Source of the DNA: Ilumatobacteraceae bacterium
GTDB taxonomy: Bacteria; Actinomycetota; Acidimicrobiia; Acidimicrobiales; Ilumatobacteraceae
Reading direction: 5' to 3'
DNA length: 64,000 nucleotides
Assembly: GCA_040398525.1 (NCBI GenBank)
Contig: JBBATY010000009.1
Location: 22,416 to 86,415, forward strand
The notes beneath the pieces are model-generated. The model worked only from the letters and a program-made list of their open reading frames with translations. It made no database searches and was not told the DNA's origin. The translations under genes were made by a program, and so were the position numbers. Positions 1,759-48,500 of this stretch are shown piece by piece (position 1 is the first letter of the stretch; every line of letters starts with the position of its first letter).

Positions 1759-1770
1759 GATGGTCTCCGG

Positions 1771-3026: not shown

Positions 3027-3027
3027 G

Positions 3028-3675: not shown

Positions 3676-3680
3676 CGGCC

Positions 3681-10339: not shown

Positions 10340-10387
10340 GATCGGACAGTCCTGGCGTTTTCTGGAGGGAGGCGCAAAGATGACGCG

Positions 10388-12258: not shown

Positions 12259-12259
12259 G

Positions 12260-14200: not shown

Positions 14201-14228
14201 CTCGCACAACACCAACAGGGGGAACCGA

Positions 14229-22589: not shown

Positions 22590-22652
22590 GTTCAGTCGTC
22601 ACCGTGTTCCGTCACCGGGTGTGCGTGTCGGTCGGGACCGCTTGCAGACATG

Positions 22653-24206: not shown

Positions 24207-24367
24207 TGTCCAGACCCCCTCGACAGCAGACCGGATCATGCCTCGTCGGGCGGCGAGGGTATCACCCGGGCTTGCAGCATCGTTGACCTGCTCCTGTGCT
24301 ACAACTACGGTCCTCTACGTGCTCCGGGACATCTGTGCCCCGGAGACCGATACACCCTGGGGGGGAC

Positions 24368-26095: not shown

Positions 26096-26120
26096 TCTGC
26101 AGTAGCAGCCTTCGGATGGA

Positions 26121-26164
26121 CGGGGCCGGGCCGCTGCCCTCGCGCAGTGGCCCGGCCCCGTTTT
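26121..26164 (+). terminator. Intrinsic terminator/attenuator between the SBP gene and the permease genes
   Basis: Perfect 12-bp stem cggggccgggcc (26121-26132) pairs with ggcccggccccg (26149-26160), followed by TTTT (26161-26164). It sits in the 109-nt gap after the SBP stop. Confidence 0.7.
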
Positions 26165-26204
26165 CCGATCCCACACCATCCCGAGTGCTCCCTGACGGAC
26201 CCTG

Positions 26205-28075: not shown

Positions 28076-30135
28076 CCGACCTCGCCGTCCCTGCGTCCAG
28101 CCCTGCCTCGAGCACGGCTGCGCTCGAGGTCCGCGACCTCGAGGTGGTCTACAAGGTCCGCGGCATCGACCGCATCGTGCTGCGCGGCGTGTCGTTCGCC
28201 ATCGCACCGGGCGAGGCCTACGGCCTCGTCGGTGAATCCGGCTGCGGCAAGAGCACCACCGCGTACGCCGCGCTTCGCTACCTGCCGCGTAACGGCCGGA
28301 TCACTTCCGGGCAGGTGCTGGTGGGCGGTCAGGACGTCACGGCGATGAGCGAGTCGCGGCTGCGCGAGTTCCGCGCCCGCGACGCATCGATGGTCTACCA
28401 GGACCCTGCGCAAGCGATGAACCCGACGATCCGCGTCGGCAGCCAGTTGATCGAGAGCTTCACCCTGCTCGGCCAGAACAAGCAGCAGGCGCAGGCTTCC
28501 GCGATCGAGGCGCTGCGCAAGGTGCGCATCGCCGACCCCGAGCGCGTGATGGACCGCTACCCGTTCCAGCTCTCGGGCGGGATGCAGCAGCGGGTCGTCA
28601 TCGCCATGGCGTTGGCCTGCGATCCGAAGCTGCTCGTGCTCGACGAACCCACGACAGGCCTCGACGCAACCGTGGAGGCCGAGGTGCTCGACCTCGTGCA
28701 GACCCTGCGCAAGGAGAGCGACGCTGCCGTCCTGTTGATCGCCCACAACCTCGGCATCATCCGTTCGTTGTGCGATCGGGTTGGCGTGATGTACGCCGGC
28801 CGCATCGTCGAACAGGGGCCCAGTTCGCAGGTGTTCGACAGCCCCCAGCATCCGTACACGGTCGGGCTGTTGCGCTCGCTACCGCGCCGGGGAGCGCGCA
28901 AGACCGAGAAGTCGCTCGCCACCATCCCGGGCATCCTGCCGCTCATCGGCGCCGATCTCCCCACCTGTGTGTTCGTCGATCGCTGTCCGCTGGCAGACGA
29001 CGTGTGCCGCACCGAGGTTCCGCCCGTCACCCCCATTGGCGACGACGGCACGCGGTACTCGCGCTGCCACCACGTCGACCGTATCGACCAGATCCACGAC
29101 GACGTCACCAAGGTGGGCATCAGCATGCTGGTGTCCGACGAGGCGCACCCCGACGTGTTGCAACTCAGCCATGTGTCGAAGACGTTCAAGCAGCGCAACA
29201 CGGCCATCCCAGCCCTCGTCGACGTCGACCTCGAACTCGTCGAGGGCGAGACGCTCGGCATCGTGGGCGAGTCCGGTTCCGGCAAATCGACACTCGCCAA
29301 GACGATGCTCGGCATCGAGAGCCTCGACACCGGTGGCTCGGTGTCGCTCGACGGCCACCAGCTCGCTGCGTCCACGGTCGACCGCACGGCCGACGACAAA
29401 CGGTCGATGCAGATGATCTTCCAGAACCCCGACTCGGCACTGAACCGCAGCTGGTCGGTGCGGCGCATCCTGGTGCGCAGTGTCGAGAAGCTCACCGGCA
29501 TCAAGGGCAAGGAGGCCAACGACCGTGTCGAGGCCCTCGCCGCGCACCTGCGGCTCACCCCTCGCCACCTCGACCTGAAGCCGCGCCAGCTCTCGGGCGG
29601 CCTGAAGCAGCGTGTTGCCATCGCCCGCGCCTTCGTCGGCGATCCGCGCATCGTGGTGTGCGACGAGCCCACCAGCGCCCTCGACGTGTCGGTGCAAGCC
29701 GCCATCTTGAACCTTCTCGCCGATCTGCAGTCCGAGAACAAGACGAGCTACGTCTTCATCTCCCACGACATGGGTGTGGTTCGCTATCTCGCTGATCGCA
29801 TCGCCGTGATGTACCTCGGCCGCATCCAGGAGATCGGCTCCACCGACGAGGTGTTCACGGGGCCCAACCACCCGTACACCGAGGCACTGCTCTCGGCCAT
29901 TCCCGATGTCGACGGCGGTATGCGGGAACGCGTCCGCCTCGGCGGCGAGATCCCCAGCCCGGCCAACCCGCCGTCGGGCTGTGTGTTCCATCCGCGCTGC
30001 CCGCGGGCCATGCCCGGGGTGTGCGAGATCAGCGAGCCACCGCTGCGCGAGGTCTCGCCGGGGCATGCGATGCGCTGCCACATCCCCATCGAGACCCTCG
30101 TCGAGCTGCAGCGCAAGCCCTCGGTCGACGCCTGA
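28072..30135 (+). CDS. Fused double ATP-binding protein (DppD-DppF type) of the family-5 ABC importer
   Basis: GTG at 28072 after GGAGG, overlapping the permease stop (GTGA). It has two Walker A motifs (GESGCGKST, GESGSGKST), two signatures (LSGGMQQRV, LSGGLKQRV) and oligopeptide-type C-terminal Cys motifs. Confidence 0.85.
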   Translation: MTDLAVPASSPASSTAALEVRDLEVVYKVRGIDRIVLRGVSFAIAPGEAYGLVGESGCGKSTTAYAALRYLPRNGRITSGQVLVGGQDVTAMSESRLREFRARDASMVYQDPAQAMNPTIRVGSQLIESFTLLGQNKQQAQASAIEALRKVRIADPERVMDRYPFQLSGGMQQRVVIAMALACDPKLLVLDEPTTGLDATVEAEVLDLVQTLRKESDAAVLLIAHNLGIIRSLCDRVGVMYAGRIVEQGPSSQVFDSPQHPYTVGLLRSLPRRGARKTEKSLATIPGILPLIGADLPTCVFVDRCPLADDVCRTEVPPVTPIGDDGTRYSRCHHVDRIDQIHDDVTKVGISMLVSDEAHPDVLQLSHVSKTFKQRNTAIPALVDVDLELVEGETLGIVGESGSGKSTLAKTMLGIESLDTGGSVSLDGHQLAASTVDRTADDKRSMQMIFQNPDSALNRSWSVRRILVRSVEKLTGIKGKEANDRVEALAAHLRLTPRHLDLKPRQLSGGLKQRVAIARAFVGDPRIVVCDEPTSALDVSVQAAILNLLADLQSENKTSYVFISHDMGVVRYLADRIAVMYLGRIQEIGSTDEVFTGPNHPYTEALLSAIPDVDGGMRERVRLGGEIPSPANPPSGCVFHPRCPRAMPGVCEISEPPLREVSPGHAMRCHIPIETLVELQRKPSVDA

Positions 30136-30136
30136 C

Positions 30137-30162
30137 GGGCATGCTGCGGAGGCAGCGTGCCC
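30137..30162. terminator. Hairpin between convergent ABC ATPase gene and soxD (possible bidirectional terminator)
   Basis: gggcatgctgc (30137-30147) pairs with gcagcgtgccc (30152-30162). The stem is 11 bp with one G-U pair and the loop ggag. There is no U-tract. Confidence 0.4.
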
Positions 30163-30181
30163 GCTCGCTGGTGCGGGCGGG

Positions 30182-30418
30182 TCAGTCGACGATGCGATCG
30201 ACGCTGGTGTCGCGCTGCACGGTGCACCAGCGGTGGCAGCCACCCGAGTGGAACCACCGCTCGGTCTGCACACCCGACCCGTTGGTGAAGAACCACACCC
30301 GGTGCAGGTCGCGTTCGATCGGGTCGGTGATCGACGCTGGCGCCTCGGGGTCTTCGCCGCCGAATCGGAACTCTTCCACCGGCCGCGGGCCGCAGTGTGG
30401 GCAGGGGATCGTCAGCAT
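30182..30418 (-). CDS. soxD: Sarcosine oxidase delta subunit-like
   Basis: 78 aa from the ATG at 30418. It reads MLTIPCPHCGPRPVEEFRFGG...HSGGCHRWC, a Cys3His zinc pattern typical of SoxD. Confidence 0.8.
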   Translation of the reverse strand: MLTIPCPHCGPRPVEEFRFGGEDPEAPASITDPIERDLHRVWFFTNGSGVQTERWFHSGGCHRWCTVQRDTSVDRIVD

Positions 30419-30426
30419 CGTGGCTC

Positions 30427-31635
30427 CTACTTGGTGCCGGTCGAGCCGAGGTCGGCCATCGGCTGGTCCTTGGCGAAGCGGTCGAGGGCGAACGGGGCGA
30501 TCAGCTCGGGCACGCGGCCCGTGGCGATGAGCTCGGCGAGCTGCTCGCCGCCGGCGGGAATGGCTTTGAAGCCCCACGTGCCCCAGCCAGTGGTGATGTA
30601 GAAGCCGTCGACGCCGGTGTGGCCGATGATGGGCGAGAAGTCGGCCGACACATCGCACCGCCCCGTCCACTGGCGCAGGATGCGCAGGTCGCGGGTGAAC
30701 GGCAGCACCATCGCCATCTTGCGCGAGCACTGCTGAAGGAACTGGAACGACGACTGCAGCGAGTAGCTGGCCTGCGGCTCGTACTCGTGGCCGATGAGCA
30801 TCTGCCCGCGGGCGGTCTGCGAGATGTACGAGTTCATCTCGGTGTCGGAGATGATGTTGGGGAACGTGCGGGCGTAGCTGTTGGTGACGAACGCCTGCAG
30901 CGGGTGGGTGCGGATGGGCAGGCGCAAGTCGGCGTGTGCTGCGAGCACCGACACGTTGCCGCCCACGGCGCTGACCACCGCGCCGGCGTGGATGTCGCCC
31001 GTGGGGGTGCGCACGCCGGTGACCCGGCCGCCGTCGCGCAGCAAGCCGATGACCGGCGTGTTCTGCACCACGTGCACGCCACGACGCATCGCCCCCTGGG
31101 CGTAGGCCCACACCACGCGGTCGTGGCGGGCCGAGGCGCCGGGAAGGTGGTAGCTCGCTCCGAGCACCGGGTAGCGGCCGCCACCGGAGAGGTCGATCTG
31201 CGGACAGAGGCGCTTCACTTCGGAGGGCTCGATGAAGTGGGTCTCCACCCCGAAGGCCTGATTCAGCAGGGCGCGGGCGCGCTGGGTGCGCAGCGTGGCT
31301 TCGCTGTGGGCCAGCCACATCAGACCCTTGGTGTCGTGCATGATCCAGCAGCCGGTCTCGGCCTCGAGTTGCTGGTACAGCCGCACGCTGTGGTCGTAGA
31401 ACTTGATCGACTCCGACAACCCGTAGTTGGAGCGGATGATCGTGGTATTGCGGCCCGAGTTGCCGCTGCCGATGTAGTTGGCCTCGATGACCAGCACGTC
31501 GGTGATGCCGTGGCGTTCGGCGAGGTGATAGGCGGTCGACAGACCGTGGCCGCCGCCACCGACGATGACGACGTCGTACGACGACTTCGGTTCGTGCCAG
31601 GCCAGTTCGAGCAGGGTTTCGACGAACTCGTTCAT
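30427..31635 (-). CDS. soxB: Sarcosine oxidase beta subunit-like (FAD/FMN flavoprotein)
   Basis: ATG at 31635 (MNEFVETLLELAWHEPKSSYDVVIVGGGGHGLSTAYHLAERHGI...GRNTTIIRSNY). The start overlaps the upstream stop (ATGA at 31632-31635). Confidence 0.85.
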   Translation of the reverse strand: MNEFVETLLELAWHEPKSSYDVVIVGGGGHGLSTAYHLAERHGITDVLVIEANYIGSGNSGRNTTIIRSNYGLSESIKFYDHSVRLYQQLEAETGCWIMHDTKGLMWLAHSEATLRTQRARALLNQAFGVETHFIEPSEVKRLCPQIDLSGGGRYPVLGASYHLPGASARHDRVVWAYAQGAMRRGVHVVQNTPVIGLLRDGGRVTGVRTPTGDIHAGAVVSAVGGNVSVLAAHADLRLPIRTHPLQAFVTNSYARTFPNIISDTEMNSYISQTARGQMLIGHEYEPQASYSLQSSFQFLQQCSRKMAMVLPFTRDLRILRQWTGRCDVSADFSPIIGHTGVDGFYITTGWGTWGFKAIPAGGEQLAELIATGRVPELIAPFALDRFAKDQPMADLGSTGTK

Positions 31636-32057
31636 GCCACGGCCCCCAGTCGGTCGGGCACCTCGTGGAACGCCGAGCCCGACACGATGAGCAACGTTCG
31701 GTCGGCCTCCATCACCAGCTTGATGGCCAGACCGCACACCATGCCCTGGGCCAGTGCCGGCCGGGTGGTGGGCAGCGGCCACTCGAGCTTGTGGGTCAGT
31801 GCCGTCAACTGCGCCGCATCGAGCCAGGCGCCACGGAACATGGCCTCGGGTTCGATGATCGCATGCGGGTCGGCGGTGGCCACCGCAGCGGCGTCGTCGA
31901 CGGTGGCGTCGATGACCAAGGCGTCGTCGGGGGCGACGCGCACCATGATGGCGCCGGCTGGCCAGGTGGCCGCGTCGATGGCGGCAGGCTTGGCCGTGAT
32001 GCGCACGCCCATCAGGGTGGAGAATCGCATCGGTTCGAGTGCGTCAGAGGCGGGCAC
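31632..32057 (-). CDS. soxG: Probable sarcosine oxidase gamma subunit-like protein (short)
   Basis: Assigned by position (after soxA, before soxB) and size class only. The start is uncertain: GTG at 32057 lies about 6 nt after GGAGG and overlaps the soxA 3' end, and ATG at 32030 is the alternative. No strong motif was recognised. Confidence 0.4.
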   Translation of the reverse strand: MPASDALEPMRFSTLMGVRITAKPAAIDAATWPAGAIMVRVAPDDALVIDATVDDAAAVATADPHAIIEPEAMFRGAWLDAAQLTALTHKLEWPLPTTRPALAQGMVCGLAIKLVMEADRTLLIVSGSAFHEVPDRLGAVA

Positions 32058-34218
32058 GGGCACCCTCCGGGTCGTAGAAGGGGGTCGGAGCGACGGTGGC
32101 GGTGCGACCGTCGATGAACACCGTGTCGAGGAACGGCAGGCGCTTCTGCCAACCGAGCAGCACCGCGTGCCCGAGCAGGGGAGAGCTGAAGCTGGTGGCC
32201 ACATGGCCGATCACCTCACCACCCTCTCGGTCGAAGATCGGGGCACCTTCCAGCGGCGCCGGGCCGTCCATTCGCATGCCGAACAGGCGGCGTGAATCGT
32301 CGAGGCTCGCGGTGCGTGCCAGCGACGGGCGACCGATGAAGAACGGCTTCTCCATCTTCACGGCCCAGTCGAGGCCCAACCTGGCGGGGGTGGAGTCCAT
32401 CTCGGAGTCGAGGCCCACCAGGAAGTGGCCCTTTTCGAGTCGCAGGCCGAACAGAGCCTGCAGGCCGTGCGGGTGGATGCCGAGATCGGCACCCAGCCGC
32501 ATCAGTTCGCGCCACAGTTCCACCGAGTGGGCCGTGAGGTGGTGCAACTCGAAGCTCGCCTCGCCGGTGAACGACAGGCGCATCACGTGGCAGGGCACAC
32601 CGGCCACGTCGGCGTGCACGTGCTGCAACATCTTCGGCGGCTCGGCCAACCCGGCACGGCGCAGCAGTTCGCCCGCCAGCGGTCCGGTGACATTGATGGC
32701 GGCGAGCGAGAACGTGCGGTCGAGCACGTGCACGTCGAGGCCCCAGGTCTCGATCCAGTCGCGCACCCACATCTCGGCGAACGAGGCACCACCCGAGGTG
32801 AAGCTGAGCGCGAATCGGTGATCGCTCTCGCGCAGGATCATCCCGTCGTCGATGACATGGCCGCGCTCGTTCAGCAGCAGGGCGTACCGGCTGCGGCCAG
32901 GGCGGATGTCGGCGACGTTGCACGGGTACAGCCGCTCGAGCGCCTCGACGACGTCGGGGCCCGACACGATCATCTTGCCCAGTGTGGACACGTCGCCCAG
33001 CGACACCGCCTCGCGGACGGCCCAGTACTCGCGCACGTGGTCGCCGTAGTTCCAGGGGCGCCACCAGCCGCCGAAGCGGTCCATGTGGGCGCCGAGGGCG
33101 AGGTGCTCGTCGTGCAGTGCAGTGCGCCGCCAGGCGTCGAGGTGCACGTCGGCGGCAGCTTCGGCGATGGTGAGCTGGCGCGACGCCGGGCGACCGGTGA
33201 ACGGCGCCGGCTCGGTGCCCGACCGGTCGGCGACGAAGGCACGCAGGTGAGGCATGCAGACACCGCCCTGGCAGGTGCCGGTGCCGCACAGGCTGGCCCG
33301 CTTCACCAGTTCGAGGTGCTGGAAGCCCTTCTGCCACACACCGTCGAGGTCGTCGACGGTCACTTTCGAGCAGGGGCACACGGTGCCTGCCTGTGGCGCA
33401 GGGGGGAGGTCGAAGCGCTCGGCGGCCGCTCCGACGACACGGACAGAGGGTTCGTCGGTCATGCGGGCGAGCAGGTCGCGGGGTGCCCGGCGGGCACTCG
33501 TGACCACCACGCTGCGGCACGCGTGCCGGGTGCCATCACGGGTGACCACGGTGTGCACCCAGCCGTCGTCGCCCTCGAAGTGGTCGAGGTCGTCGAGGTC
33601 GACGGTGACGCTGTCGTGCAGCTCGACACCGCGCTCGACGAGGTGTGCGGCCGCACCAGCAGTGAGGATGCCGCGCAGCATGTTGCCCTCGCACACCGGG
33701 TGCAGTTCGGCGGCACCCGTGGCGATGACCACCTCGTGGGCGTGCACGTGCAGCATGTGGTCGGAGCGGCGCACGATAACGGTGGGCCCCTGGTAGACGC
33801 CCACCACGTCGTCACCCGACCCGCTGTCGAGCACGAGCACGGTGTGGCCGTCCGCCTGTGCCGTGCCGGCCTCGGCGCGACCGGCTTCGCTCGCGCCGAT
33901 GACAGCGACGTCGACATGGGCGCGGCGCACGGTCACTTCCACAGGAGGTGCGATGCGGGTGGGGTCGGCGAGCACAGCGTTGCGCAGCGGCGGGCCACCC
34001 ACCAGGGGATGGCGGCGCACATCCAGACCCGGCTCGGCAGTCGTCTGACAGGTGCGGGTGAAGCCCACGCCGGCCACGACGGCCGAGCAGTTGCCGCAAT
34101 CACCTGCGAGGCAGAGGGTGCCGCCGTGTTGGGGGTGCTGGCCGGCGCGGATGATCGCATCGGCGATCGTGTCGCCGACGTCGAACGAGATGGGGGAGTC
34201 GTCGAACGCGAAACGCAT
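32044..34218 (-). CDS. soxA: Sarcosine oxidase alpha subunit-like (short form with C-terminal GcvT/THF-binding domain)
   Basis: 724 aa. It has an N-terminal Fer2_4-like segment, a degenerate dinucleotide fold (VAVIGASEAG), a Cys-rich SoxA-type segment (CPCSKVTVDDL...CGTGTCQGGVC) and a GcvT domain (SFTGEASFELH, RLEKGH). Confidence 0.8.
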   Translation of the reverse strand: MRFAFDDSPISFDVGDTIADAIIRAGQHPQHGGTLCLAGDCGNCSAVVAGVGFTRTCQTTAEPGLDVRRHPLVGGPPLRNAVLADPTRIAPPVEVTVRRAHVDVAVIGASEAGRAEAGTAQADGHTVLVLDSGSGDDVVGVYQGPTVIVRRSDHMLHVHAHEVVIATGAAELHPVCEGNMLRGILTAGAAAHLVERGVELHDSVTVDLDDLDHFEGDDGWVHTVVTRDGTRHACRSVVVTSARRAPRDLLARMTDEPSVRVVGAAAERFDLPPAPQAGTVCPCSKVTVDDLDGVWQKGFQHLELVKRASLCGTGTCQGGVCMPHLRAFVADRSGTEPAPFTGRPASRQLTIAEAAADVHLDAWRRTALHDEHLALGAHMDRFGGWWRPWNYGDHVREYWAVREAVSLGDVSTLGKMIVSGPDVVEALERLYPCNVADIRPGRSRYALLLNERGHVIDDGMILRESDHRFALSFTSGGASFAEMWVRDWIETWGLDVHVLDRTFSLAAINVTGPLAGELLRRAGLAEPPKMLQHVHADVAGVPCHVMRLSFTGEASFELHHLTAHSVELWRELMRLGADLGIHPHGLQALFGLRLEKGHFLVGLDSEMDSTPARLGLDWAVKMEKPFFIGRPSLARTASLDDSRRLFGMRMDGPAPLEGAPIFDREGGEVIGHVATSFSSPLLGHAVLLGWQKRLPFLDTVFIDGRTATVAPTPFYDPEGARARL

Positions 34219-34227
34219 GAACTGCTC

Positions 34228-36249
34228 TCAGGTCTCGTCGGCGCGCCGGATGGTGACCGGTTGACCGCCGAGTTGGTCGAAGGGGATATGGCAACGGATC
34301 ACGCCGCCATCGGGGGTAGGCGTGAGAGGGGGCTCGGTGGTGCGACAGAGGTCGCCGAGGAAGCGGGGGCACCGAGTGTGGAACACACAGCCGGAGGGGA
34401 CGTTCACTGCACTGGGGATCTCGCCCTCGAGACGGATGCGCTCGCGCTTGTCACCGTCGACCGACGGAGCTGCCGACAGCAGGGCCTCGGTGTAGGGGTG
34501 GTGCGGCCCGTCGAACACCCGCTCAGCTGGGCCGAGCTCCATGATCCGACCGAGGTAGAGCACGGCGATGCGGTCCGACAGGTACCGCACCACGCGAAGG
34601 TCGTGGGAGATGAACAGGTAGCTCGTGCGGCTGTCGCGCTGCAGGTCGCCGAGCAGGTTCAGGATCGCTGCCTGCACCGATACGTCGAGCGAGGAGGTCG
34701 GCTCGTCGCACACCACGATGCGCGGCTTGCCTGCGAACGCTCGGGCGATCGCGACGCGCTGCTTCAGACCGCCCGACAGCTGGACGGGCCGCATGTCGAG
34801 GTGGCGCTCGGTCAACCGCACGGCGCTGGTGATGGCGGTCAGCTCGCCTTCGACCTCGGCCGCCGGCACCTGCCCGAGACGGCGCAGGCTGCGGCCGACG
34901 ATGCGTCGCACACTGTGTCGGCGGTTGAGCGCCGAGTCCGGGTTCTGGAAGACGATCTGGATGGACCGGATCTGGTCGAGCGTTCGACGCTTGGTGCTCG
35001 TCGGCAGCTGCGCCCCGTCGAGGGTCAGCTCGCTGCCCTCGTCGGGAGGGGTGATCCCCAAGATGGCGTGGGCGAGCGTGGTCTTCCCGCTTCCGGACTC
35101 TCCGACCAGACCGAGGGTCTCACCGGGGAAGAGGTCGAGGTCGACGTCGCGGACTGCGTAGATCGGCTTGCCGGCCTGACGGAACGTCTTGCTCACCCCG
35201 CGCAGGGTCAGCAAGGGCCCGGCGGAGCGGTCGACGACCGATGGGAACCCACTCGGGAGCTCGGCGGCCGCCATTCCAGCCACCTGATCGGTGTGGTGGC
35301 AACGTACCGAACGACCGTCGAGGGTTGTCCACGGGGGCGCTTCCGATCGACACTGATCGGACGCGAGCGCGCAACGGTCGACGAACACACAGTTCGGCAG
35401 CTCGGCGCCGAGCACCGGCAGGAAGCCGGGAATCGTCTCGAGGCGTTGGGCCTCCTTGCGCGAGCCGTGCCGCGGCAAGCACCTCAGCAGCCCGACCGAG
35501 TACGGGTGCTGAGGATCGTCGAACACCTGCTGGGCGTCGCCCTCCTCGACCACCTGGCCCGCATAGAGCACACCGACCCTGTCGCACATGGAGCGGATCG
35601 CACCGAGGTTGTGGGAGATGAACAACACCGAGGTGCCGTACTCGCGGCGCAGTCCCCGGACCAGGTCGAGCACCTCGGCCTCGACGGTGGCGTCGAGACC
35701 AGTGGTCGGCTCGTCGAGGATGAGCAGCTGCGGGTTCGACGCGAGCGCCATCGCGATCACGACACGCTGCTGCATGCCGCCGGACAACTGGTGCGGGTAG
35801 CGGCTCAGCACCGACTCGGGATCGGCGATCTGGACCTTGGCCAGCATCTCGAGCGAGCGCTGGCGAGCCTCGTCCCTACCCAGACCGAGGACGTCGAACG
35901 CCTCCATCAACTGGGGCCCGACCCTGATGGTCGGGTTCATCGCCTGTCCAGGGTCCTGGTACACGATCGACGCATCGCGAGCACGCAACTGGCGGAGCTC
36001 GTCGCTGCCGAGCGACATCACGTCCCGCCCGCCGAGCCTCACCGACCCACCGAGGATGCGAGCGTTGTCCGGCAGGTATCGGACGGCGGCGTACGCGGCC
36101 GTGCTCTTGCCACAGCCGCTCTCACCTACCAGGCCGTACGACTCGCCCGGCTGGATGGCGAACGAGACCCCGCGGAGCACCTCGCGCGTGATCCCGCGCA
36201 CGACGTACCCGAGCCGTAGGTCGACGAACTCCAGTGCTGCGTCGCTCAC
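34228..36249 (-). CDS. Fused double ATP-binding protein (DppD-DppF type), paralogue of 28072..30135
   Basis: GTG at 36249 overlaps the upstream stop (GTGA). Motifs are GESGCGKST/LSGGMQQRV and GESGSGKTT/LSGGLKQRV. By eye it is about 70 % identical to the other ATPase over the N-terminal block. Confidence 0.85.
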   Translation of the reverse strand: MSDAALEFVDLRLGYVVRGITREVLRGVSFAIQPGESYGLVGESGCGKSTAAYAAVRYLPDNARILGGSVRLGGRDVMSLGSDELRQLRARDASIVYQDPGQAMNPTIRVGPQLMEAFDVLGLGRDEARQRSLEMLAKVQIADPESVLSRYPHQLSGGMQQRVVIAMALASNPQLLILDEPTTGLDATVEAEVLDLVRGLRREYGTSVLFISHNLGAIRSMCDRVGVLYAGQVVEEGDAQQVFDDPQHPYSVGLLRCLPRHGSRKEAQRLETIPGFLPVLGAELPNCVFVDRCALASDQCRSEAPPWTTLDGRSVRCHHTDQVAGMAAAELPSGFPSVVDRSAGPLLTLRGVSKTFRQAGKPIYAVRDVDLDLFPGETLGLVGESGSGKTTLAHAILGITPPDEGSELTLDGAQLPTSTKRRTLDQIRSIQIVFQNPDSALNRRHSVRRIVGRSLRRLGQVPAAEVEGELTAITSAVRLTERHLDMRPVQLSGGLKQRVAIARAFAGKPRIVVCDEPTSSLDVSVQAAILNLLGDLQRDSRTSYLFISHDLRVVRYLSDRIAVLYLGRIMELGPAERVFDGPHHPYTEALLSAAPSVDGDKRERIRLEGEIPSAVNVPSGCVFHTRCPRFLGDLCRTTEPPLTPTPDGGVIRCHIPFDQLGGQPVTIRRADET

Positions 36250-37145
36250 CGGTCGAGGACCCCCTGGATACCGTCGGCGATCAGGTTGATCGCCACGACG
36301 AGGGATGCAAGTGCGACGGCGGGGACCACACACGGCCACCAGACATCGCTCAGCAGTCCAGCCCGCTCTTCGAAGATCGTGCGACCCCAGTCGGGGGAGC
36401 CGGGCTGGGTGCCGAAACCGATGAAGGCCAGACCCGCCATGGTGAACACGGCGTAGCCGAGGCGAACGGTGAACTCCACCACGATCGGTCCCATGACGTT
36501 CGGCAGGATCTCGACGAACATGATGTAGCTCGACCGCTCACCACGCAGTTCGGCAGCACGAACGTAGTCGAGGTTGCGTTCGGCTTGGACTGCTGCACGA
36601 ATCGTTCGGGCGATGATCGGACCGAACAGCGCACCGATCAGAAGGATGATCGTGAAACGACCACTCGACAGAGCGGTGAGTGCGAGGAGTGCCACGAGGA
36701 TGAGCGGAAGGCTCATCAGCGCTTCGATGAACCGACTCAGGATGTCGTCGATCGGGCCGCGGAAGTAGCCCATCAACAACCCGAGCACGACACCGATGAT
36801 CGTGCCGAGCACGACTGCGGCAGGCGCGACGATCATGATCTCCCGCGCCCCGTAGATCGCCCTGCTGTAGACGTCGCGACCGAAGCGATCGGTGCCGAAC
36901 CAATAGCCCTCGTTGAAGAACGGACGGATCCACTTGCTGGTCGGGTCCTGCTTCGACGGGTCGTGCGTTGCGAAGAACCCCGGAGCGACTGCGCAGAGCA
37001 CCCAGAAGAGGAAGATCGCAACACCGACGAGGAACGTCCTCGAGCGCAGCAGCATGCGCCGCGTCTCTCGACGAATGCTCGAGGTCGCGACTCCTGTCGG
37101 AGCAGGCGAAACGGTCTCCGGAGCCGAAGCGGACAGGTCGCTCAT
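36246..37145 (-). CDS. ABC transporter permease (DppC/OppC-like)
   Basis: ATG at 37145 (MSDLSASAPETV...) overlaps the upstream stop (ATGA). It has FGTDRFGRDVYSRAI and YVRAAELRGERSSYIMFVEILPN. Confidence 0.9.
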   Translation of the reverse strand: MSDLSASAPETVSPAPTGVATSSIRRETRRMLLRSRTFLVGVAIFLFWVLCAVAPGFFATHDPSKQDPTSKWIRPFFNEGYWFGTDRFGRDVYSRAIYGAREIMIVAPAAVVLGTIIGVVLGLLMGYFRGPIDDILSRFIEALMSLPLILVALLALTALSSGRFTIILLIGALFGPIIARTIRAAVQAERNLDYVRAAELRGERSSYIMFVEILPNVMGPIVVEFTVRLGYAVFTMAGLAFIGFGTQPGSPDWGRTIFEERAGLLSDVWWPCVVPAVALASLVVAINLIADGIQGVLDR

Positions 37146-38089
37146 TGGACGTACCCGTACCTGATCCGCGGGTTGAGCCATGCGCTCAACACGTCGGCGA
37201 CGAGGTTCAAGAGCATCGCGATGGCCCCCACGATGAAGACCGAGGCCATGAGCATCGGGATGTCCCGATCGCTCGCAGCGTCGAAGATGAGCAGGCCGAG
37301 GCCTCGGTAGTTGAACAACGTCTCGGTGACGAGCAGGCCACCAAGGAGGTAGCTGATCTGCACCGCGATCACGGCGATCGTGGGCAGCAGCGCGTTGCGC
37401 AACACGTGTCGACGCAAGACCGTGCGCCGTGGCAGCCCCTTCAACGTTGCAGTCCTCGTGTAATCCGCAGCGAGCGCCTCGATCGTGCCGGCGCGGGCCA
37501 TCCGCGCGAGGTACCCGAACAGGATGGCGCTCAGGGTGACCGCCGGCAGGATGAGCACCTCGATCTGCTCCCACAACGAGCCCTTGGCAGACCCGCCTGG
37601 CGGAAGCCATCCGAGCTTCACGGCGAAGACGATGATCAGGACGATCCCGATCACGAACTCCGGGGTGACCGCGAGGCTGAGCCCCGTGATCGTGACCGCA
37701 CGGTCGGTGGCCTTCCCTTTGCGCAACGCAGCGAGAGCACCCCCGACGATGCCGAGCGGAACGACGATGAGCACCGTCATCGCCGCCAGCTTCATCGACG
37801 CCCAGAGCGCCTTCGGGATGAAGTCCATCACCGGCGCCTTGTACTTGTACGAGTTCCCGAAATCACCGGTCAGCACTCCGCCGAACCAGCGGAGGTACCG
37901 ACCGACCAGCGGTCCGTCGACCCCCAACTCGCGGTTGAGGTTGTCGACGGACTGCTGGTCGGCGAACGGCCCGAGGATCGCTCTACCGACGCTGCCGGGA
38001 AGCACCGCAGCAATGAAGAACACCACCACGCTCAACAAGAACAGCGTGATGAGCGCCAGACCAAGCCGGCGGAGCACGAAACGACCCAT
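37142..38089 (-). CDS. ABC transporter permease (DppB/OppB-like)
   Basis: 315 aa. It starts MGRFVLRRLGLALITLFLLSVVVFFIAAVLPGS and carries YTRTATLKGLPRRTVLRRHVLRNAL. Confidence 0.9.
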   Translation of the reverse strand: MGRFVLRRLGLALITLFLLSVVVFFIAAVLPGSVGRAILGPFADQQSVDNLNRELGVDGPLVGRYLRWFGGVLTGDFGNSYKYKAPVMDFIPKALWASMKLAAMTVLIVVPLGIVGGALAALRKGKATDRAVTITGLSLAVTPEFVIGIVLIIVFAVKLGWLPPGGSAKGSLWEQIEVLILPAVTLSAILFGYLARMARAGTIEALAADYTRTATLKGLPRRTVLRRHVLRNALLPTIAVIAVQISYLLGGLLVTETLFNYRGLGLLIFDAASDRDIPMLMASVFIVGAIAMLLNLVADVLSAWLNPRIRYGYVQ

Positions 38090-38112
38090 CGGTGACGATC
38101 ACCCAGCGGTGA

Positions 38113-39888
38113 TCAGGAGATGGTTGCGTTGTCGGTGAAGTAGTGGCCCATGCCGGTCGCCACCGCACCGGCGACATTGGCACGCGTCGCCGACAGGAAG
38201 TTGATGGCGAACGGGATGATCATCGGCACTTCGTCCTGCAGGACCGCGGTGATCTTCTCGCCGGCAGCTGCCTGGCTCTGCAGATCGGGCGACGACGAGT
38301 AGGTGTCGACCAGCGAGTCGAAGTCCGCATTGGCGAACTCCGCCGCGTTCCACACACCCGCGCCGTCCTCGACGCTCGTGAAGCTCTTGAGCGCTGCGTT
38401 GAGGTAGACGTCGGGAACGCCGCGGTGGCCGTAGTCGGTGATGCCGATGTCGCTGCCGGGAACGCTCGGGTCGTAGGTGCGGACCCAGTTCTTGTCGTAG
38501 TAGTCGTCGCGCAGCTCGATCGTCAGGTTGATGCCGATCTCCTTGGCGTTGTTCTGCAGGATGACCGCCAGGTCGGGCGCCTCGAAGTAGTTGATGCCGT
38601 AGAGCGTGGCATCGAAGCCGCCGCCGGCGTCGGCCACCAGCTGCTTGGCCTTCTCCACGTCGAACGGGGTCTCCGGGACGTTGCCTGCCGACGGGTACAT
38701 CGCGAACAGCGGCGAGTCGTAGGCGGTCGCCGCACGGCCGCCGAGCAGCGCCTCGATGATCGCCGCACGGTCGGTCGCAAGGGCCATGGCCTGGCGGATG
38801 CGCTTGTCGGCGAACGGGCCTTCCGAGCAGCGCATGTGGATCTGGCGATGGTTCGCCGACGCGATCTCGCTGATGATGTAGTCCGGGTTGTCGAACAGCG
38901 ACTCGGCGCCAGAGAAGTTGAACTGCGGGAGGGCGTCGATCTCGCCGGCCTGCAGCGCAGCGACGGCTGCAGCCTGATCGCTGAAGAAGGTGAACTCGAG
39001 CCCGGCCAGCTTCAGCGGGTTGCCCCAGTAGGCGGGGTTCGGCACGTAGACGATGCCGCTCACGGCATCGAAGCTCTTGATCGTCCACGGGCCCGTGGTG
39101 GCGATCTTGCCTGCGGCCACGTCGGCGGCGAAGTTCGACGTGTCGGTCACCGATGCCGGCAGGATGATCGCGTTGTAGTTGTCGCTCGAGACGATGTACG
39201 GGAAGTTGGCGAACGGGCCATTGAGCTTGAACACGACCGTGGCGTCGTCGAGCGCCGTCGTGCCACCCGGCGAGAGCTTGCCGGTGCTGAACGCGGAGAG
39301 TGCGTTGGAGTTGTTGTCCGGGTTGACCAGACGCTCCATCGTGGCCACGACATCGGCCGCCGTCACCGGCGCGCCATCGCTGAACTTGGCGTTCGGGTTG
39401 AGCTTGAACGTCCACTCCGAGGCATCTGCGTTCGCCGACCACTCGGCGGCGATCGAGGGGCTGAGCGTCAGGTCGGAGTTCGAGAGCGTGAGGAACTGGC
39501 CGACCTGGCTGAGCAGGATCAGGCCGGCACCGTCGTTGATCAGCACCGGGTCGAGCGTCGCCGAGGCTGCCGAGGGTGCGTAGTTGGCGCAGCGCAGCGT
39601 GCCACCGACGGTCGGAGCGGCCGTGGTCTCGGTCGGAGCAGCCGTCGTCTCCGTGCCGCCACCGCTGGTGGTCGCCGGCGCAGCGGTCGTGCCGGTCGAC
39701 TCCTCGTCACCGCCGCAGGCTGCGAGCAGCGCGCCGATGGTCGGCAGCGACATGCCGACCACGGTGCCTCGACGGATGAACGACCGGCGGGACAGGCGCC
39801 CGGCAAGGTACTCGTCGATGACGTGGTTGCTGATCTCTCCCTGCGAGCGACGAATTGCGTCGATGCGGCCCGAGGACTTGTTGTTCAC
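38113..39888 (-). CDS. ABC transporter substrate-binding protein, family 5, Tat signal plus lipobox; paralogue of 24368..26095
   Basis: The start is taken at GTG 39888, with GGGGG 5 nt upstream. TTG at 39900 is an alternative. It has SRRSFIRRGTVVGMSLPTIGALLAACGG, a TETTAAP repeat linker and AAEWSANADASEWTFKLNPNAKFSDG. Confidence 0.85.
   Translation of the reverse strand: MNNKSSGRIDAIRRSQGEISNHVIDEYLAGRLSRRSFIRRGTVVGMSLPTIGALLAACGGDEESTGTTAAPATTSGGGTETTAAPTETTAAPTVGGTLRCANYAPSAASATLDPVLINDGAGLILLSQVGQFLTLSNSDLTLSPSIAAEWSANADASEWTFKLNPNAKFSDGAPVTAADVVATMERLVNPDNNSNALSAFSTGKLSPGGTTALDDATVVFKLNGPFANFPYIVSSDNYNAIILPASVTDTSNFAADVAAGKIATTGPWTIKSFDAVSGIVYVPNPAYWGNPLKLAGLEFTFFSDQAAAVAALQAGEIDALPQFNFSGAESLFDNPDYIISEIASANHRQIHMRCSEGPFADKRIRQAMALATDRAAIIEALLGGRAATAYDSPLFAMYPSAGNVPETPFDVEKAKQLVADAGGGFDATLYGINYFEAPDLAVILQNNAKEIGINLTIELRDDYYDKNWVRTYDPSVPGSDIGITDYGHRGVPDVYLNAALKSFTSVEDGAGVWNAAEFANADFDSLVDTYSSSPDLQSQAAAGEKITAVLQDEVPMIIPFAINFLSATRANVAGAVATGMGHYFTDNATIS
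39610..39651 (-). repeat. Coding tandem repeat (2 x 21 nt, 19/21 identical) encoding ETTAAPT ETTAAPT in the SBP linker
   Basis: The + strand reads ggtcggagcggccgtggtctc followed by ggtcggagcagccgtcgtctc. Confidence 0.75.
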
Positions 39889-40022
39889 GTTGACCCCCAA
39901 AAATTGTCGAAACGGTTGTATCAGTATGGCACGCGCACGCGTCGTAGGGGAACAACCTCCGTTGCTGTGGTGCACGCCGGCTGCGGCGCTGCGTACATCG
40001 CCACCGACATAGGCTTACGAAC

Positions 40023-41186
40023 ATGGACCCGCAGCGGCGACGCGAGCTACACCTGCAACACGTGCGCGACGCGCTCACCCGGGCGGAAGCGGCCGGGTAC
40101 GACGAGGCGTGGGCGATGCCGAGCGCGTTCTACACCGAGCAGGCGGTGCTCGACCTCGAATGTCGGGAGCTGTTCGGCCGCGAATGGGTGTGCATCGGGC
40201 GCGCCGACGAGATCCCCGAGCCTGGCGACTTCATGACCTTCCAACTGTGCGACGAGCCGCTGGTCGCCGTGCGCTCAGCCGACCATGCAATCCGGGTGTT
40301 GTCGAACGTGTGCCGCCATCGCGGTGCGCTGGTCGCCGAGGGTCGCGGCACGGCGAGCCACCTGCAATGCCCGTACCACCACTGGACCTACGAGCTCGAC
40401 GGCACGCTGGCACGTGCGCCTCGGCTCGAGCAGCATCGCACCTTCGATCCCGCCCAGTGCTCGCTGCCGTCGTTCGCCACCGAGGATTGGATGGGCTTTC
40501 TGTTCGTCTCGCTCGCCGACGAACCCGCGCCACTGGCACCGCAGCTCAAGGGCATCGAGGATCTGGTGCGGCCCTATCACCTCGAACTCGCCACCACGCG
40601 CTTCGTCGCCGACGAGGTCTGGCCGACCAACTGGAAGTGCTTCGTCGAGAACTTCATGGAGGGCTACCACCTCACGCCACTGCACCGCACGACGCTGCAT
40701 CCGGTGAACCCCACCCGATTGTGCCGCCACTATCCGCCCGGCGACGCCTACTTCGGCTACCACGCCGGCTTCACGCCTGGCCTGCCGCGCCTCGAGCCCG
40801 GCCACCCCGACCTCACACCAGAGCAGGTCGACGACTGCATCATGTTCGCGGTCCCGCCCGGGCTGGTGGCCGGCTGCGCGTCCGACTACAGCTCATTCAT
40901 CTGCGTGCAGCCGGAGTCGGTCGACCGCGTGCGCCTGAAGCTGGGGTTGATGTTCTTCGGTGACCGATGGACCGAGGACGACATCGAGACAGCGGCACGG
41001 CTGTTCCAGGAGACCAATGCCGAGGATCGTGCGGTCCTCGAAGGGATCACCCGCGGCCATGCCTCAGGACGGCACAGCGCAGGTCCCCTCGCGCCCGCAG
41101 CGTTCGAGGGGACCCTGCACGACTTCTCCCGGTATCTCGCCCGCCGGTTGGCCGCGGCACTCGAGCAGGCTGTCCCGAACCACTGA
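40023..41186 (+). CDS. Rieske [2Fe-2S] non-haem iron oxygenase, alpha-subunit type (GbcA / Stc2 / CntA-like N-methyl amine demethylase family)
   Basis: 387 aa. The Rieske motif is CRHRG...CPYHHW and the mononuclear iron motif is NFMEGYHLTPLH. Confidence 0.8.
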   Translation: MDPQRRRELHLQHVRDALTRAEAAGYDEAWAMPSAFYTEQAVLDLECRELFGREWVCIGRADEIPEPGDFMTFQLCDEPLVAVRSADHAIRVLSNVCRHRGALVAEGRGTASHLQCPYHHWTYELDGTLARAPRLEQHRTFDPAQCSLPSFATEDWMGFLFVSLADEPAPLAPQLKGIEDLVRPYHLELATTRFVADEVWPTNWKCFVENFMEGYHLTPLHRTTLHPVNPTRLCRHYPPGDAYFGYHAGFTPGLPRLEPGHPDLTPEQVDDCIMFAVPPGLVAGCASDYSSFICVQPESVDRVRLKLGLMFFGDRWTEDDIETAARLFQETNAEDRAVLEGITRGHASGRHSAGPLAPAAFEGTLHDFSRYLARRLAAALEQAVPNH

Positions 41187-41209: not shown

Positions 41210-43669
41210 TCAGGCCCGCATGCGCAGGCCCTCGGGGTCGAGCACCGGCTCGTGCTGCAGCGTCGCCGGGCGGCGACGGCCCATGATCTCGATCTCGAAG
41301 CCCGATTCGGCCGTGGCGATCTCGGTGGGGACGTAGCCGAGGGCCAGCGACACCTGCGAGTAGTGGGCGTAGCCGCCACTGGTGATCCAGCCGACCACCT
41401 CGCCGTTGTGCCACACCGGCTCGTCACCGATCACGTCGGCTGGCGAATCCGGATCGACGTCGACACGGAACATCACCAGCTTGCGCTTCGGTCCACCTGC
41501 GGCGATCTCGGCCTCGACAGCCTCGCGTCCGATGAAGTCGTGGTCGAACTTCAGCGACCGGTCCATACCCGCCTCGAGCGGCGTGTAGATGGGCCGGTAC
41601 TCGCGGTACCAGGTACCGAAGTTCTTCTCGAGACGCATCGTGATGAGCGCACGGAAGCCGAACAGGCGCATGTCGAACTCCTGGCCGGCCTCCCAGATGA
41701 GATCGAACAGGTAGCGCTGGTACTCGGGCTCCATCCAGATCTCGTACCCGAGGTCGCCCGAGTACGTCATCCGGCTCAGCCACACGGGTGCCATGCCGAG
41801 GTTCACCTTGCGGAACGCCATGAACGGGAAGTCCTTCGTGGCGAGCGAGGTGTCGGTGATCTTCTGCAGCACGTCGCGCGAACGCGGGCCGGCCACGGTG
41901 AGCCCCACCATCGACAGACGGAGGTTCTCGAAGCGGATGGGGCTGCCCTCGGGCAGGTGCGAGAGGAACCAGCGCGGGTGGTGCACCTCGGCGGCCTGCG
42001 AGCCGAACAGGAAGAACTCGTCCTCGCCGATGCGGCTGACCGAGAACTCGCCCTCGATGCGGCCCTGTGGGTTGAGCATCGCGGTGAGGTTGGTGCGGCC
42101 GATCTTCGGCAGGCTGTTGGTGAACAAGCCCTGCAACCAGTCCGCGGCGCCGGGGCCGCTGACCTTGTACTTGGCGAAGTTCGAGGCCTCGCTGAACCCC
42201 ACCCGCTCGCGCACGGCGCGGCTCTCCTCGGCCACCACGTCGAACGCGTTCGAACGGAGGAACGTGATGTTCTCGTACGGCTCGAGGCCCGGCTTCTGGA
42301 ACCACAGCGGGTGCTCGAGCCCCATCGCTGCACCCCACACCGCATTGTGCGCGGTGAGGCGGTCGTAGATGGGCGTGGTGAGCAGCGGGCGGGCCGCGGG
42401 CAGTTCCTCGTTGGGGAACGTGATGCGGAAGCGCCGCGAGTAGTTCTCACGCACTTTCGAGTTGGTGTAGGCGAGGGTGGCGAAGTCGCCGTAGCGGGCC
42501 ACGTCCATGCCCCAGATGTCGGCACCCGGGTCGCCGTTCACCATCCACTCGGCGAGGCTGAGGCCCACGCCGCCGCCCTGCGACAGACCGGCCATCACGG
42601 CGCACGCCGACCACATGCCGCGCATGCCCTTGATCGGGCCCACCAACGGGTTTCCGTCGGGACTGAACGTGAACGGGCCGTTCACGAAGCGCTGGATGCC
42701 GGCGCGCCCCACAGCGGGGAAGTGCTCGAAGGCACGCTCGAGCTCGGGCGAGATTCGGTCGAGATCGTGGGGGAGCAACTGCGAGACGAAGTCCCACGGG
42801 GTCTGCTTGGCCGACCACACCCGGTTCTCCTGCTCGTAGGTGCCGAGCAGGATGCTCTGGCCCTCCTGGCGGGCGTAGATCTCGCCAGCGAAGTCGATCA
42901 TGTGCGGCAACTCGCGGCCGTGCGTCTGGTTGTACTCGATCACCTCTTGCATCGGCTCGGTCATCAGGTAGTGGTGCTCCATCGCCAGCACCGGCAGCTC
43001 GAGACCGCACATCCGGCCGACCTCACGGGCCCACAGGCCGCCGGCGTTGACGACATGCTCGGTGTGGATGACGCCCTTGTCGTCGCCGGTGCTCGGGTCG
43101 TAGCAATGGACGTCCCACGTGCCGTCGGCGCGCTGGGTGAGCTTGTTCACCCAAGTGTGCTGATAGGTCTCGGCCCCGCGGTTGCGGGCGCAGATGAGGT
43201 AGGCGTTGGTGACGCCGGTCGGGTCGACGCTGCCCTCGTCCTCGTCGTACATCGCACCGACGAAGAAGCGCTCCTCGAGCAACGGGTTCAGCTCCTTGGC
43301 CTCCTTCATCGACAGCATCTCGGTCTTCATGCCGAGGTAGCGACCTCGGGCATGGGCCATGCGCAGCCAGTCGAGGCGCTCGGGGGTGTCGGCCAGCTGC
43401 AGGCCACCGGGCAGGTGGATGCCACAGTTCTGGCCGCTCTCGGCCTCGATCTCGCGGTACAGGTTCACCGTGTACTGCTGGAGTCGAGCCACGTTGGGGT
43501 CGCCGTTCAGCGTGTGCATGCCGCCTGCGGCATGCCAGGTGCTGCCCGAGGTGTACGTCGCCTTCTCGACGAGGACGACATCGGACCAGCCGGCCTTGGT
43601 GAGGTGGTACAGCACACTGGCGCCGACCACACCTCCACCGATGACGACGACCTGGGTTGAGGTTTTCAT
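41210..43669 (-). CDS. FAD-dependent oxidoreductase fused to a GcvT domain (dimethylglycine dehydrogenase/oxidase family), paralogue 3, divergent subfamily
   Basis: ATG at 43669, with AGGAG 7 nt upstream. It reads MKTSTQVVVIGGGVVGASVLYHL...GSTWHAAGGMHTLNG...YSGDLGYEIW...RLEKNF. Confidence 0.9.
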   Translation of the reverse strand: MKTSTQVVVIGGGVVGASVLYHLTKAGWSDVVLVEKATYTSGSTWHAAGGMHTLNGDPNVARLQQYTVNLYREIEAESGQNCGIHLPGGLQLADTPERLDWLRMAHARGRYLGMKTEMLSMKEAKELNPLLEERFFVGAMYDEDEGSVDPTGVTNAYLICARNRGAETYQHTWVNKLTQRADGTWDVHCYDPSTGDDKGVIHTEHVVNAGGLWAREVGRMCGLELPVLAMEHHYLMTEPMQEVIEYNQTHGRELPHMIDFAGEIYARQEGQSILLGTYEQENRVWSAKQTPWDFVSQLLPHDLDRISPELERAFEHFPAVGRAGIQRFVNGPFTFSPDGNPLVGPIKGMRGMWSACAVMAGLSQGGGVGLSLAEWMVNGDPGADIWGMDVARYGDFATLAYTNSKVRENYSRRFRITFPNEELPAARPLLTTPIYDRLTAHNAVWGAAMGLEHPLWFQKPGLEPYENITFLRSNAFDVVAEESRAVRERVGFSEASNFAKYKVSGPGAADWLQGLFTNSLPKIGRTNLTAMLNPQGRIEGEFSVSRIGEDEFFLFGSQAAEVHHPRWFLSHLPEGSPIRFENLRLSMVGLTVAGPRSRDVLQKITDTSLATKDFPFMAFRKVNLGMAPVWLSRMTYSGDLGYEIWMEPEYQRYLFDLIWEAGQEFDMRLFGFRALITMRLEKNFGTWYREYRPIYTPLEAGMDRSLKFDHDFIGREAVEAEIAAGGPKRKLVMFRVDVDPDSPADVIGDEPVWHNGEVVGWITSGGYAHYSQVSLALGYVPTEIATAESGFEIEIMGRRRPATLQHEPVLDPEGLRMRA

Positions 43670-48431: not shown

Positions 48432-48500
48432 GGGCAGATCCTGTCACAGGCGACGGAGCGGCTGTCGCGGTCCGGCCAGTACCGCATAGATTCCCGGACA

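Follow-up and report, generated by a model that had tools for sequence, protein, structure and literature searches.

A family-5 importer joined to a shortened sarcosine-oxidase-type module in a methylated-amine island of a freshwater Ilumatobacteraceae bacterium

A 64,000-nucleotide (nt) stretch of DNA from a freshwater member of the Ilumatobacteraceae (Acidimicrobiia; assembly GCA_040398525.1, contig JBBATY010000009.1, positions 22,416 to 86,415), hereafter the window, carries at 30182-39888 on the minus strand eight close-packed genes for a family-5 ATP-binding cassette (ABC) importer and a sarcosine-oxidase-like (Sox-like) enzyme. We consider it somewhat probable that this 9.7-kb unit arose by lineage-specific fusion of two methylated-amine modules, a sox module that works with a betaine-type pathway and an importer for the entry substrate of that pathway or its precursor. 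Across related genomes, what consistently accompanies the short sox module is a pair of genes directly upstream, for an MttB-family methyltransferase and a dimethylglycine dehydrogenase (DMGDH)-type flavoprotein, and not a transporter. The window has a GC content of 68%, and genes were called from a listing of open reading frames (ORFs) together with third-position GC. The operon and the intergenic regions that bound it are listed below.

39889..40022, intergenic: divergent region of 134 nt between SBP_II and a Rieske gene, presumed promoter/operator as read from the sequence
38113..39888, minus strand: SBP_II, substrate-binding protein (SBP), a family-5 lipoprotein (SBP_bac_5, PF00496, 243 bits)
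37142..38089, minus strand: permease of the OppB/DppB type (BPD_transp_1 and BPD_transp_1_N)
36246..37145, minus strand: permease of the OppC/DppC type (BPD_transp_1 and OppC_N)
34228..36249, minus strand: double ATPase, OppD-OppF in a single chain (two ABC_tran and two oligo_HPY stretches)
32044..34218, minus strand: short SoxA-like alpha subunit, 724 amino acids (Fer2_4 with four Cys, reduced Rossmann, BFD-like/SO_alpha_A3 with four Cys, GCV_T and GCV_T_C)
31632..32030, minus strand: short SoxG-like gamma subunit, 132 amino acids from ATG, with alternative GTG starts at 32057 or 32063
30427..31635, minus strand: SoxB-like beta subunit of the DAO fold (323 bits to 2gag_B)
30182..30418, minus strand: SoxD-like delta subunit, 78 amino acids (PF04267, 64.5 bits; pattern CPHC...H..GC..WC)
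30136..30181, intergenic: convergent region between the stops of ATPase_I and soxD, with a GC-rich hairpin GGGCATGCTGC-GGAG-GCAGCGTGCCC as read from the sequence

The order, positions, gaps and overlaps of these eight genes all hold as first read, and every gap is 23 nt or less. Spacers of 23, 9 and 8 nt separate SBP_II from the OppB-type permease, the ATPase from soxA, and soxB from soxD, respectively. The two permease genes overlap by ATGA (37142-37145), the OppC-type permease and the ATPase by GTGA (36246-36249), and the soxG-like ORF and soxB by ATGA (31632-31635). The soxG-like ORF begins 13 nt past soxA at its ATG and overlaps soxA if an upstream GTG is used. The ATPase/soxA junction is spanned by contigs of three other studies (X3 record 13, X8 record 22 and X9 record 29), and the convergent soxD/ATPase_I junction is spanned by four contigs. 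Because contigs bridge both junctions, the gene arrangement is not an assembly artefact. Several studies contribute freshwater, aquaculture and drinking-water metagenomes in which the window DNA occurs.

The packing of the genes makes it very probable that all eight are co-transcribed in the window's genome, in keeping with the earlier note, which took them for a single operon. A sigma-70 consensus scan found no site in 39889..40022, and matches to promoter and terminator consensus sequences were no commoner than in shuffled sequence, such consensus being uninformative for a 68% GC actinobacterium. The hairpin in the convergent region is without a T tract and was not called by a T-tract terminator scan; it is likely a bidirectional terminator.

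The partners of the sox module emerge from a comparison of 80 loci, one genome per species, that have a short SoxA 56-95% identical to that of the window (46 Actinomycetota, 33 Chloroflexota, mostly Limnocylindria, and 1 other), plus 10 further loci. The positions of window proteins in these loci were found by tblastn. Of 24 genomes from the same genus, 21 have a short SoxA, and the sox A-G-B-D module is intact in all loci. The following neighbours of the operon enter this comparison.

24296..30135, plus strand: ABC_I, a paralogous family-5 importer (SBP_I, two permeases and a fused ATPase) that converges on soxD and diverges from MttB1
40023..41186, plus strand: Rieske oxygenase, distantly GbcA-like (Rieske and Ring_hydroxyl_A; GbcA model 162 against a cut-off of 670)
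41210..43615, minus strand: DMGDH3, a dimethylglycine/sarcosine-dehydrogenase-type flavoprotein (DAO-FAO_M-GCV_T-GCV_T_C)
43741..45357, minus strand: MttB2, a non-Pyl MttB-family methyltransferase at the head of the conserved MttB-DMGDH-Sox operon (PF06253, 638 bits)

A DMGDH3-type gene lies directly upstream of soxA and in the same direction in 39 of the 59 loci with at least 3 kb of upstream DNA (20 of 26 in Chloroflexota), and an unbroken MttB-DMGDH-soxA run is seen in 35 of 53 loci (19 of 23 in Chloroflexota). Judging from gene order, DMGDH3 is the ancestral upstream neighbour of soxA. Loci without this adjacency are concentrated among the near relatives of the window, some of which are without ABC_II, the importer of the operon, and have unrelated opposite-strand genes upstream of soxA (an exporter pair, nitroreductase, MerR and sigma factor), which separate it from DMGDH3. 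In the window itself, a block made up of the Rieske gene and ABC_II sits between DMGDH3 and soxA. Outside the window, only three loci (L019/L023, L021/L024 and L018/L061, each retrieved twice) have exactly this ABC_II-soxA junction, and the Rieske gene diverges from SBP_II in L019, L021, L023 and L024 as it does here. These counts run counter to the proposal in the earlier note that the compound brought in by the transporter is the physiological substrate of the Sox-like enzyme.

The MttB-DMGDH-short-SoxAGBD operon is common to Acidimicrobiia and Limnocylindria/Chloroflexia (L040-L101, 33 Chloroflexota loci), and a cross-phylum SoxA identity of 59-68% suggests transfer between phyla. At one locus (L014, G004:C5:884000-904000), SoxB, SoxD, DMGDH3 and SBP_I are each found in two tblastn pieces and SoxA has one in-frame TGA, breaks that reflect either locus decay or sequencing frameshifts.

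All four subunits of a SoxABDG enzyme are represented, alpha, beta and delta via Pfam and gamma via fold, and these assignments support a Sox-type secondary-amine oxidase or dehydrogenase. It is the one Sox-type heterotetramer of the window's genome. The original identification stands as to subunit type; it falls short in that every subunit scored lies under its curated NCBIfam cut-off (275 against 1164 for soxA, TIGR01372; 401 against 529 for soxB, TIGR01373; 60 against 116.5 for soxD) and that the alpha subunit has 724 residues, not ~970. The beta subunit is far nearer to crystallised heterotetrameric sarcosine oxidase (TSOX) beta than to other solved flavoproteins, and phmmer alignments to 2gag_B and 1vrq_B show identical equivalents of His173 and Lys358. 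In TSOX, His173 carries the covalent flavin mononucleotide (FMN); both residues are counted as catalytic.

The alpha subunit retains a complete folate module (GCV_T 1-255 of 255, 218.6 bits, plus GCV_T_C), and its C-terminal 430 residues match residues 502-962 of 2gag_A with 182 bits. The alignment to 2gag_A begins only at residue 298. Relative to SoxA-family members of 960-990 residues, about 240 residues are gone from the dinucleotide-binding domain through five deletions, and the first glycine motif is degenerate, with VIGASEAG where GxGxxG is expected. Two sets of four cysteines (36/41/44/57 and 281/283/316/321) are kept throughout the short family and in many, not all, long SoxA-family proteins. 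Both sets are inferred to bind iron-sulfur (Fe-S) clusters, and their conservation makes a dehydrogenase mode possible, as opposed to an oxidase using O2. Short alpha forms constitute essentially one 50%-identity group, with a few relatives of intermediate length (867-914 residues).

The small ORF between soxA and soxB has no Pfam or NCBIfam match, and a profile search against PDB sequences likewise found none. It is kept in every related locus, and its AlphaFold2 model (pLDDT 91) has as top Foldseek matches the gamma subunits 2gag_C and 1vrq_C (TMq 0.71-0.74). By predicted fold it is thus a shortened SoxG, which vindicates a label that sequence families and profiles could not.

With a complete GCV_T and GCV_T_C folate domain in the alpha subunit, an N-methyl amino acid is the right substrate class, and this part of the earlier list of candidates survives. 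Operon order would most simply make the substrate sarcosine derived from betaine. The earlier note had argued against free sarcosine from betaine, a view at odds with the MttB-DMGDH-Sox order, which fits trimethylammonium demethylation, most simply from glycine betaine through dimethylglycine and sarcosine to glycine.

The importer has the components of a family-5 (cluster C) system, namely SBP_bac_5, OppB/OppC permeases and oligo_HPY ATPases. SBP_II is 36% identical to SBP_I over the full length, and the two have in common an unusual extension at the N terminus, a twin-arginine motif and a lipobox; in SBP_II the motif reads SRRSFIRRG and the lipobox LLAAC, followed by a TETTAAP-type linker. 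The extension, ~30 residues before the twin-arginine signal in both SBP_II (38113-39888) and SBP_I (24296-26095), is conserved as ..VID.(Y/F)..G..SRRSF.., and in both proteins the linker past the lipobox cysteine is rich in Thr, Ala and Pro. SBP_II scores far under the NCBIfam cut-offs of all named equivalogs (NikA, DppA, OppA, GsiB, CntA and SapA); the top equivalog, Opp5A_nikA, gives 112 for SBP_II and 156 for SBP_I against a cut-off of 600. Among PDB relatives of SBP_II, the peptide ABC SBP 8upi is best and AapF second, with AgaA and AccA at 66-88 bits.

Phylogeny sets these proteins apart. The 3.6-Mb genome has 11-12 SBP_bac_5 genes, and the others are just 24-33% identical to SBP_I or SBP_II. 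In a maximum-likelihood tree, all 20 SBPs that adjoin a sox or MttB operon, 4 of them from Chloroflexota, form one clade with 96/95 support that leaves out seven other SBP5 paralogues of the genome. Tyr231, His347, Arg348, Asp391, Tyr464, Asp485, Arg489 and Trp513 are invariant in the clade and specific to it. A reverse search found the clade in 27 of 301 Acidimicrobiia genomes, and its contexts were read in twenty loci.

ABC systems of this clade are linked to sox or MttB in at least five arrangements in two phyla: upstream of sox and co-directional, convergent past soxD, co-directional after soxD, ~5 kb downstream, and, in Chloroflexota, divergent upstream of MttB. The co-directional cases number eight: the importer precedes the sox genes in the window, L023, L024 and L061, and it follows soxD in L028, L030, L098 and L102. 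In four loci from one genus of the same family (L103, L109, L111 and L120), the clade ABC lies within MttB2-DMGDH3-ABC-MttB1-OYE-FTHFS or MttB2-DMGDH3-ABC-FTHFS-FolD operons that are without Sox, the Sox module being on a separate contig; in these genomes the same island is wired differently. In eight genomes, the clade SBP and the SoxB orthologue are on separate contigs or 2 Mb apart. Since the clade ABC can be without a nearby Sox yet linked to MttB and DMGDH, the clade is tied to the quaternary-amine pathway overall and not specifically to Sox. The grouping of all operon-linked SBPs in one clade supports a functional tie between the transporter and the methylated-amine pathway.

Other neighbours of the clade point to choline compounds. 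In L114 the ABC genes lie behind a choline-dehydrogenase-like GMC gene that is 73% identical. In L106 a choline sulfatase (11080-12609; Sulfatase and Choline_sulf_C) diverges from an SBP_I orthologue, and in L104 a sulfatase (12461-14005) lies directly past the ATPase of such an orthologue (59-62% identity, L106/L104), which makes choline-O-sulfate a candidate ligand in these genomes. A search for the Choline_sulf_C domain had no match in the window's genome, with a control that likewise matched no genome, which makes this negative uninformative, and the literature searched for a link between family-5 SBPs and choline-O-sulfate offered nothing relevant. The assertion in the earlier note that small betaines are not ligands of family-5 SBPs is contradicted by the Opp-like PrbABCD system of S. 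meliloti, a proline-betaine importer according to the passages of PMC3557214 and PMC11337228 that report it (Alloing 2006). By analogy with Prb, the cargo of the window's importer is probably a quaternary ammonium precursor, and the importer probably does not carry the direct Sox substrate.

The proposed explanation joins these observations as follows. Module 1, SoxA(short)-SoxG(short)-SoxB-SoxD, would be a trimmed heterotetrameric sarcosine-oxidase-type enzyme that oxidises an N-methyl amino acid at the flavins of the beta subunit and passes the one-carbon (C1) unit to tetrahydrofolate on the GCV_T domain of the alpha subunit. Its ancestral role would be that of last enzyme of an MttB, DMGDH and SoxAGBD operon, with the C1 units then handled by the FolD and FTHFS of the island. 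Module 2, comprising SBP_II, two permeases and the fused ATPase, would belong to a dedicated family-5 clade that travels with demethylation genes, and its ligand is most likely the entry substrate or a precursor, a quaternary ammonium compound of the betaine or choline-ester type. In the sublineage of the window, the Rieske and ABC_II block may have been inserted recently between DMGDH3 and soxA; with this insertion, the sox genes would now be read through from the transporter promoter, placing the last demethylase under the promoter of the entry-substrate importer.

The close union of importer and enzyme would also be expected if the importer brought in the direct Sox substrate. This could be a free N-methyl or N-alkyl amino acid (sarcosine, for example) or a small N-methylated peptide requiring prior cleavage, and the operon would then make a self-contained unit for uptake and oxidation. 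The 9-nt gap between the ATPase and soxA and the translational-coupling overlaps throughout speak for such a unit, as do the eight loci with a co-directional importer of the same clade. HEHEAA, a small N-substituted glycinamide, is bound by AapF (PMC11168924), which ranks second among the PDB relatives of SBP_II. Furthermore, among near relatives (SoxA at least 67% identical), a clade ABC gene shares the sox locus in 9 of the 11 loci with enough downstream DNA, so that selection for ABC-sox co-localisation is real in this group. Direct import of the Sox substrate is nevertheless unlikely in our judgement: the conserved partner of sox is MttB-DMGDH rather than an ABC system, the clade stays linked to MttB and DMGDH where it is unlinked from SoxB, and some of its members neighbour a choline sulfatase or a choline-dehydrogenase-like gene, both of which act before any sarcosine step.

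Slightly less credible still is the idea that both family-5 systems import di- or oligopeptides in the ordinary way and came to lie next to sox through module shuffling in a plastic island, sharing no substrate pathway with it. Peptides are the default ligands of family 5, 8upi is a peptide SBP, and gene neighbourhoods around sox vary widely. In addition, the neighbours of an SBP_I orthologue in L105 (59% identity) are DPP-IV, M20 and beta-lactamase-family peptidases, pointing to a peptide ligand at that locus. Shuffling of unrelated peptide importers is harder to reconcile with a single operon-linked SBP clade apart from the seven other paralogues, or with linkage that recurs in so many arrangements and in two phyla. 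By rough estimate from 11-12 genes in 3.6 Mb, the chance that one SBP5 system lies within 10 kb of a given locus is ~10%, and two flanking systems would be far rarer. It is very improbable, finally, that the enzyme oxidises opines or other N-alkyl secondary amines and is served by an opine-type importer as in Agrobacterium, a reading that draws on the homology of Sox beta and alpha subunits to OoxB and OoxA and on the presence of AgaA and AccA among the PDB relatives of the SBP. Opine oxidases release a keto acid and no C1 unit, leaving no use for a folate domain, and the opine-like candidates of the earlier note fail on this point. The complete GCV_T and GCV_T_C together with the SoxG-fold and SoxD subunits would serve N-methyl removal with C1 capture, the surrounding island has solely methyl-group and C1 metabolism genes, and the beta subunit is closest to true TSOX beta. 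An opine as substrate or ligand was set aside as unlikely given the folate domain and the C1-metabolism context, as was a nickel chelate as ligand.

The favoured fusion of a demethylation module with a precursor importer has points against it beyond the near-relative co-localisation and the peptidase neighbours in L105. MttB2 is less similar to the characterised MtgB (9yce) than is MttB1, at 290 against 394 bits, so the betaine of the operon may not be glycine betaine. An OpuA-type betaine importer is already present in the island, and about nine DMGDH/SARDH-like paralogues in the genome are potential sarcosine oxidisers.

A broader proposal, which we offer tentatively and regard as somewhat doubtful, is that the operon-linked SBPs (SBP_I, SBP_II and relatives from Acidimicrobiia and Chloroflexota) are an unrecognised clade that binds quaternary ammonium compounds (betaines and choline esters, e.g. 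choline-O-sulfate) and feeds corrinoid/MttB-dependent aerobic demethylation in abundant freshwater bacteria, partnered by a trimmed, Fe-S-bearing TSOX variant that would be a tetrahydrofolate-linked sarcosine dehydrogenase and not an oxidase. In both waters and soils, glycine betaine, choline esters and similar osmolytes serve as major currencies of carbon, nitrogen and C1 units. The aerobic corrinoid/MttB betaine route was demonstrated only recently, in marine Proteobacteria (PMC12478193). The locus described here reveals a compact MttB-DMGDH-short-Sox operon common to freshwater Acidimicrobiia and Chloroflexota together with a dedicated clade of family-5 importers that moves along with it. 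If these importers bind quaternary amines, automatic annotations as peptide/nickel ABC transporters are misleading for the clade and the betaine uptake capacity of abundant lineages is underestimated. The trimmed alpha and gamma subunits, as deduced from their sequences, would delimit the minimal parts of a TSOX-type enzyme, with the NAD-binding domain of the alpha subunit apparently dispensable.

Taken as a whole, the window constitutes a methylated-amine island, in which MtgC/MtgD/RamA/DUF1638, FolD and FTHFS accompany three genes each of the MttB and DMGDH-like types and an OpuA-type importer. Also present are a GMC oxidoreductase, an IclR regulator and an enolase-superfamily gene. Features outside the operon and its immediate neighbours include the following.

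1-4400: RACo/RamA, pterin-binding methyltransferase, DUF1638 and corrinoid protein
5421-10732: two DMGDH-like genes
11236-15242: OpuA-type importer
20526..24314, minus strand: MttB1 followed by an OYE/TMADH-type flavoprotein, with FTHFS and FolD downstream

The island seems to process several distinct methylated amines. MttB1 and the OYE-type gene were considered as a proline-betaine (MtpB/StcD-like) pair served by ABC_I, an assignment that was dropped because MttB1 is nearer MtgB.

Some further genes may be recorded. The third MttB-family gene (55340-56809, plus strand; PF06253, 643 bits) lies near a KshA-like Rieske oxygenase (53111-53998), an amidohydrolase and a class-V aminotransferase. 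A GluR0-like protein with SBP_bac_3 and Lig_chan ion-channel domains is encoded at the island edge (48267-49610, plus strand). A PF13769 ('Virulence_fact') ORF (2667-3026, minus strand) between the pterin-binding methyltransferase and DUF1638 is found beside the operon in five other loci.

Among characterised enzymes, TSOX/SoxBDAG of Corynebacterium sp. U-96 (1vrq/1x31) and Stenotrophomonas maltophilia (2gag) is alike in its four subunits, the FMN-histidine and Lys358 of beta, a delta subunit of the SoxD family, the folate domain of alpha and a gamma subunit of the SoxG fold. The window enzyme differs in an alpha subunit of 724 residues, compared with ~965, whose NAD-binding domain is cut and GxGxxG degenerate and which has two conserved Cys4 motifs. 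Its gamma subunit has 132 residues, compared with ~190-200, and is without a sequence-level match, and its genes run in the order A-G-B-D behind MttB-DMGDH. In aerobic glycine-betaine demethylation by MtgBCD of Ruegeria pomeroyi, genes for the subsequent demethylations often lie nearby (PMC12478193). The window likewise has MttB/MtgB (pfam06253), a corrinoid protein, a pterin-binding methyltransferase, RamA/RACo and DUF1638 (Pfam), which would have corresponding functions, and genes for later demethylation and C1 oxidation are co-located here also. Unlike the proteobacterial system, the hosts are Actinomycetota or Chloroflexota, MttB, DMGDH and Sox form one contiguous operon, and the importer that accompanies them is of the family-5 ABC type rather than the BCCT or OpuA type.

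For the importer, PrbABCD of Sinorhizobium meliloti offers a precedent for an Opp/family-5-type system that takes up a small quaternary ammonium compound, a likeness drawn from its description in PMC3557214 and PMC11337228. OoxAB/NoxAB with AgaA/AccA are related more loosely: their flavoprotein subunits are distantly homologous and their SBPs are likewise of family 5. In contrast to the window enzyme, opine oxidases have two subunits and are without folate domain, gamma or delta, all three of which are present here in a context of methyl-group and C1 metabolism.

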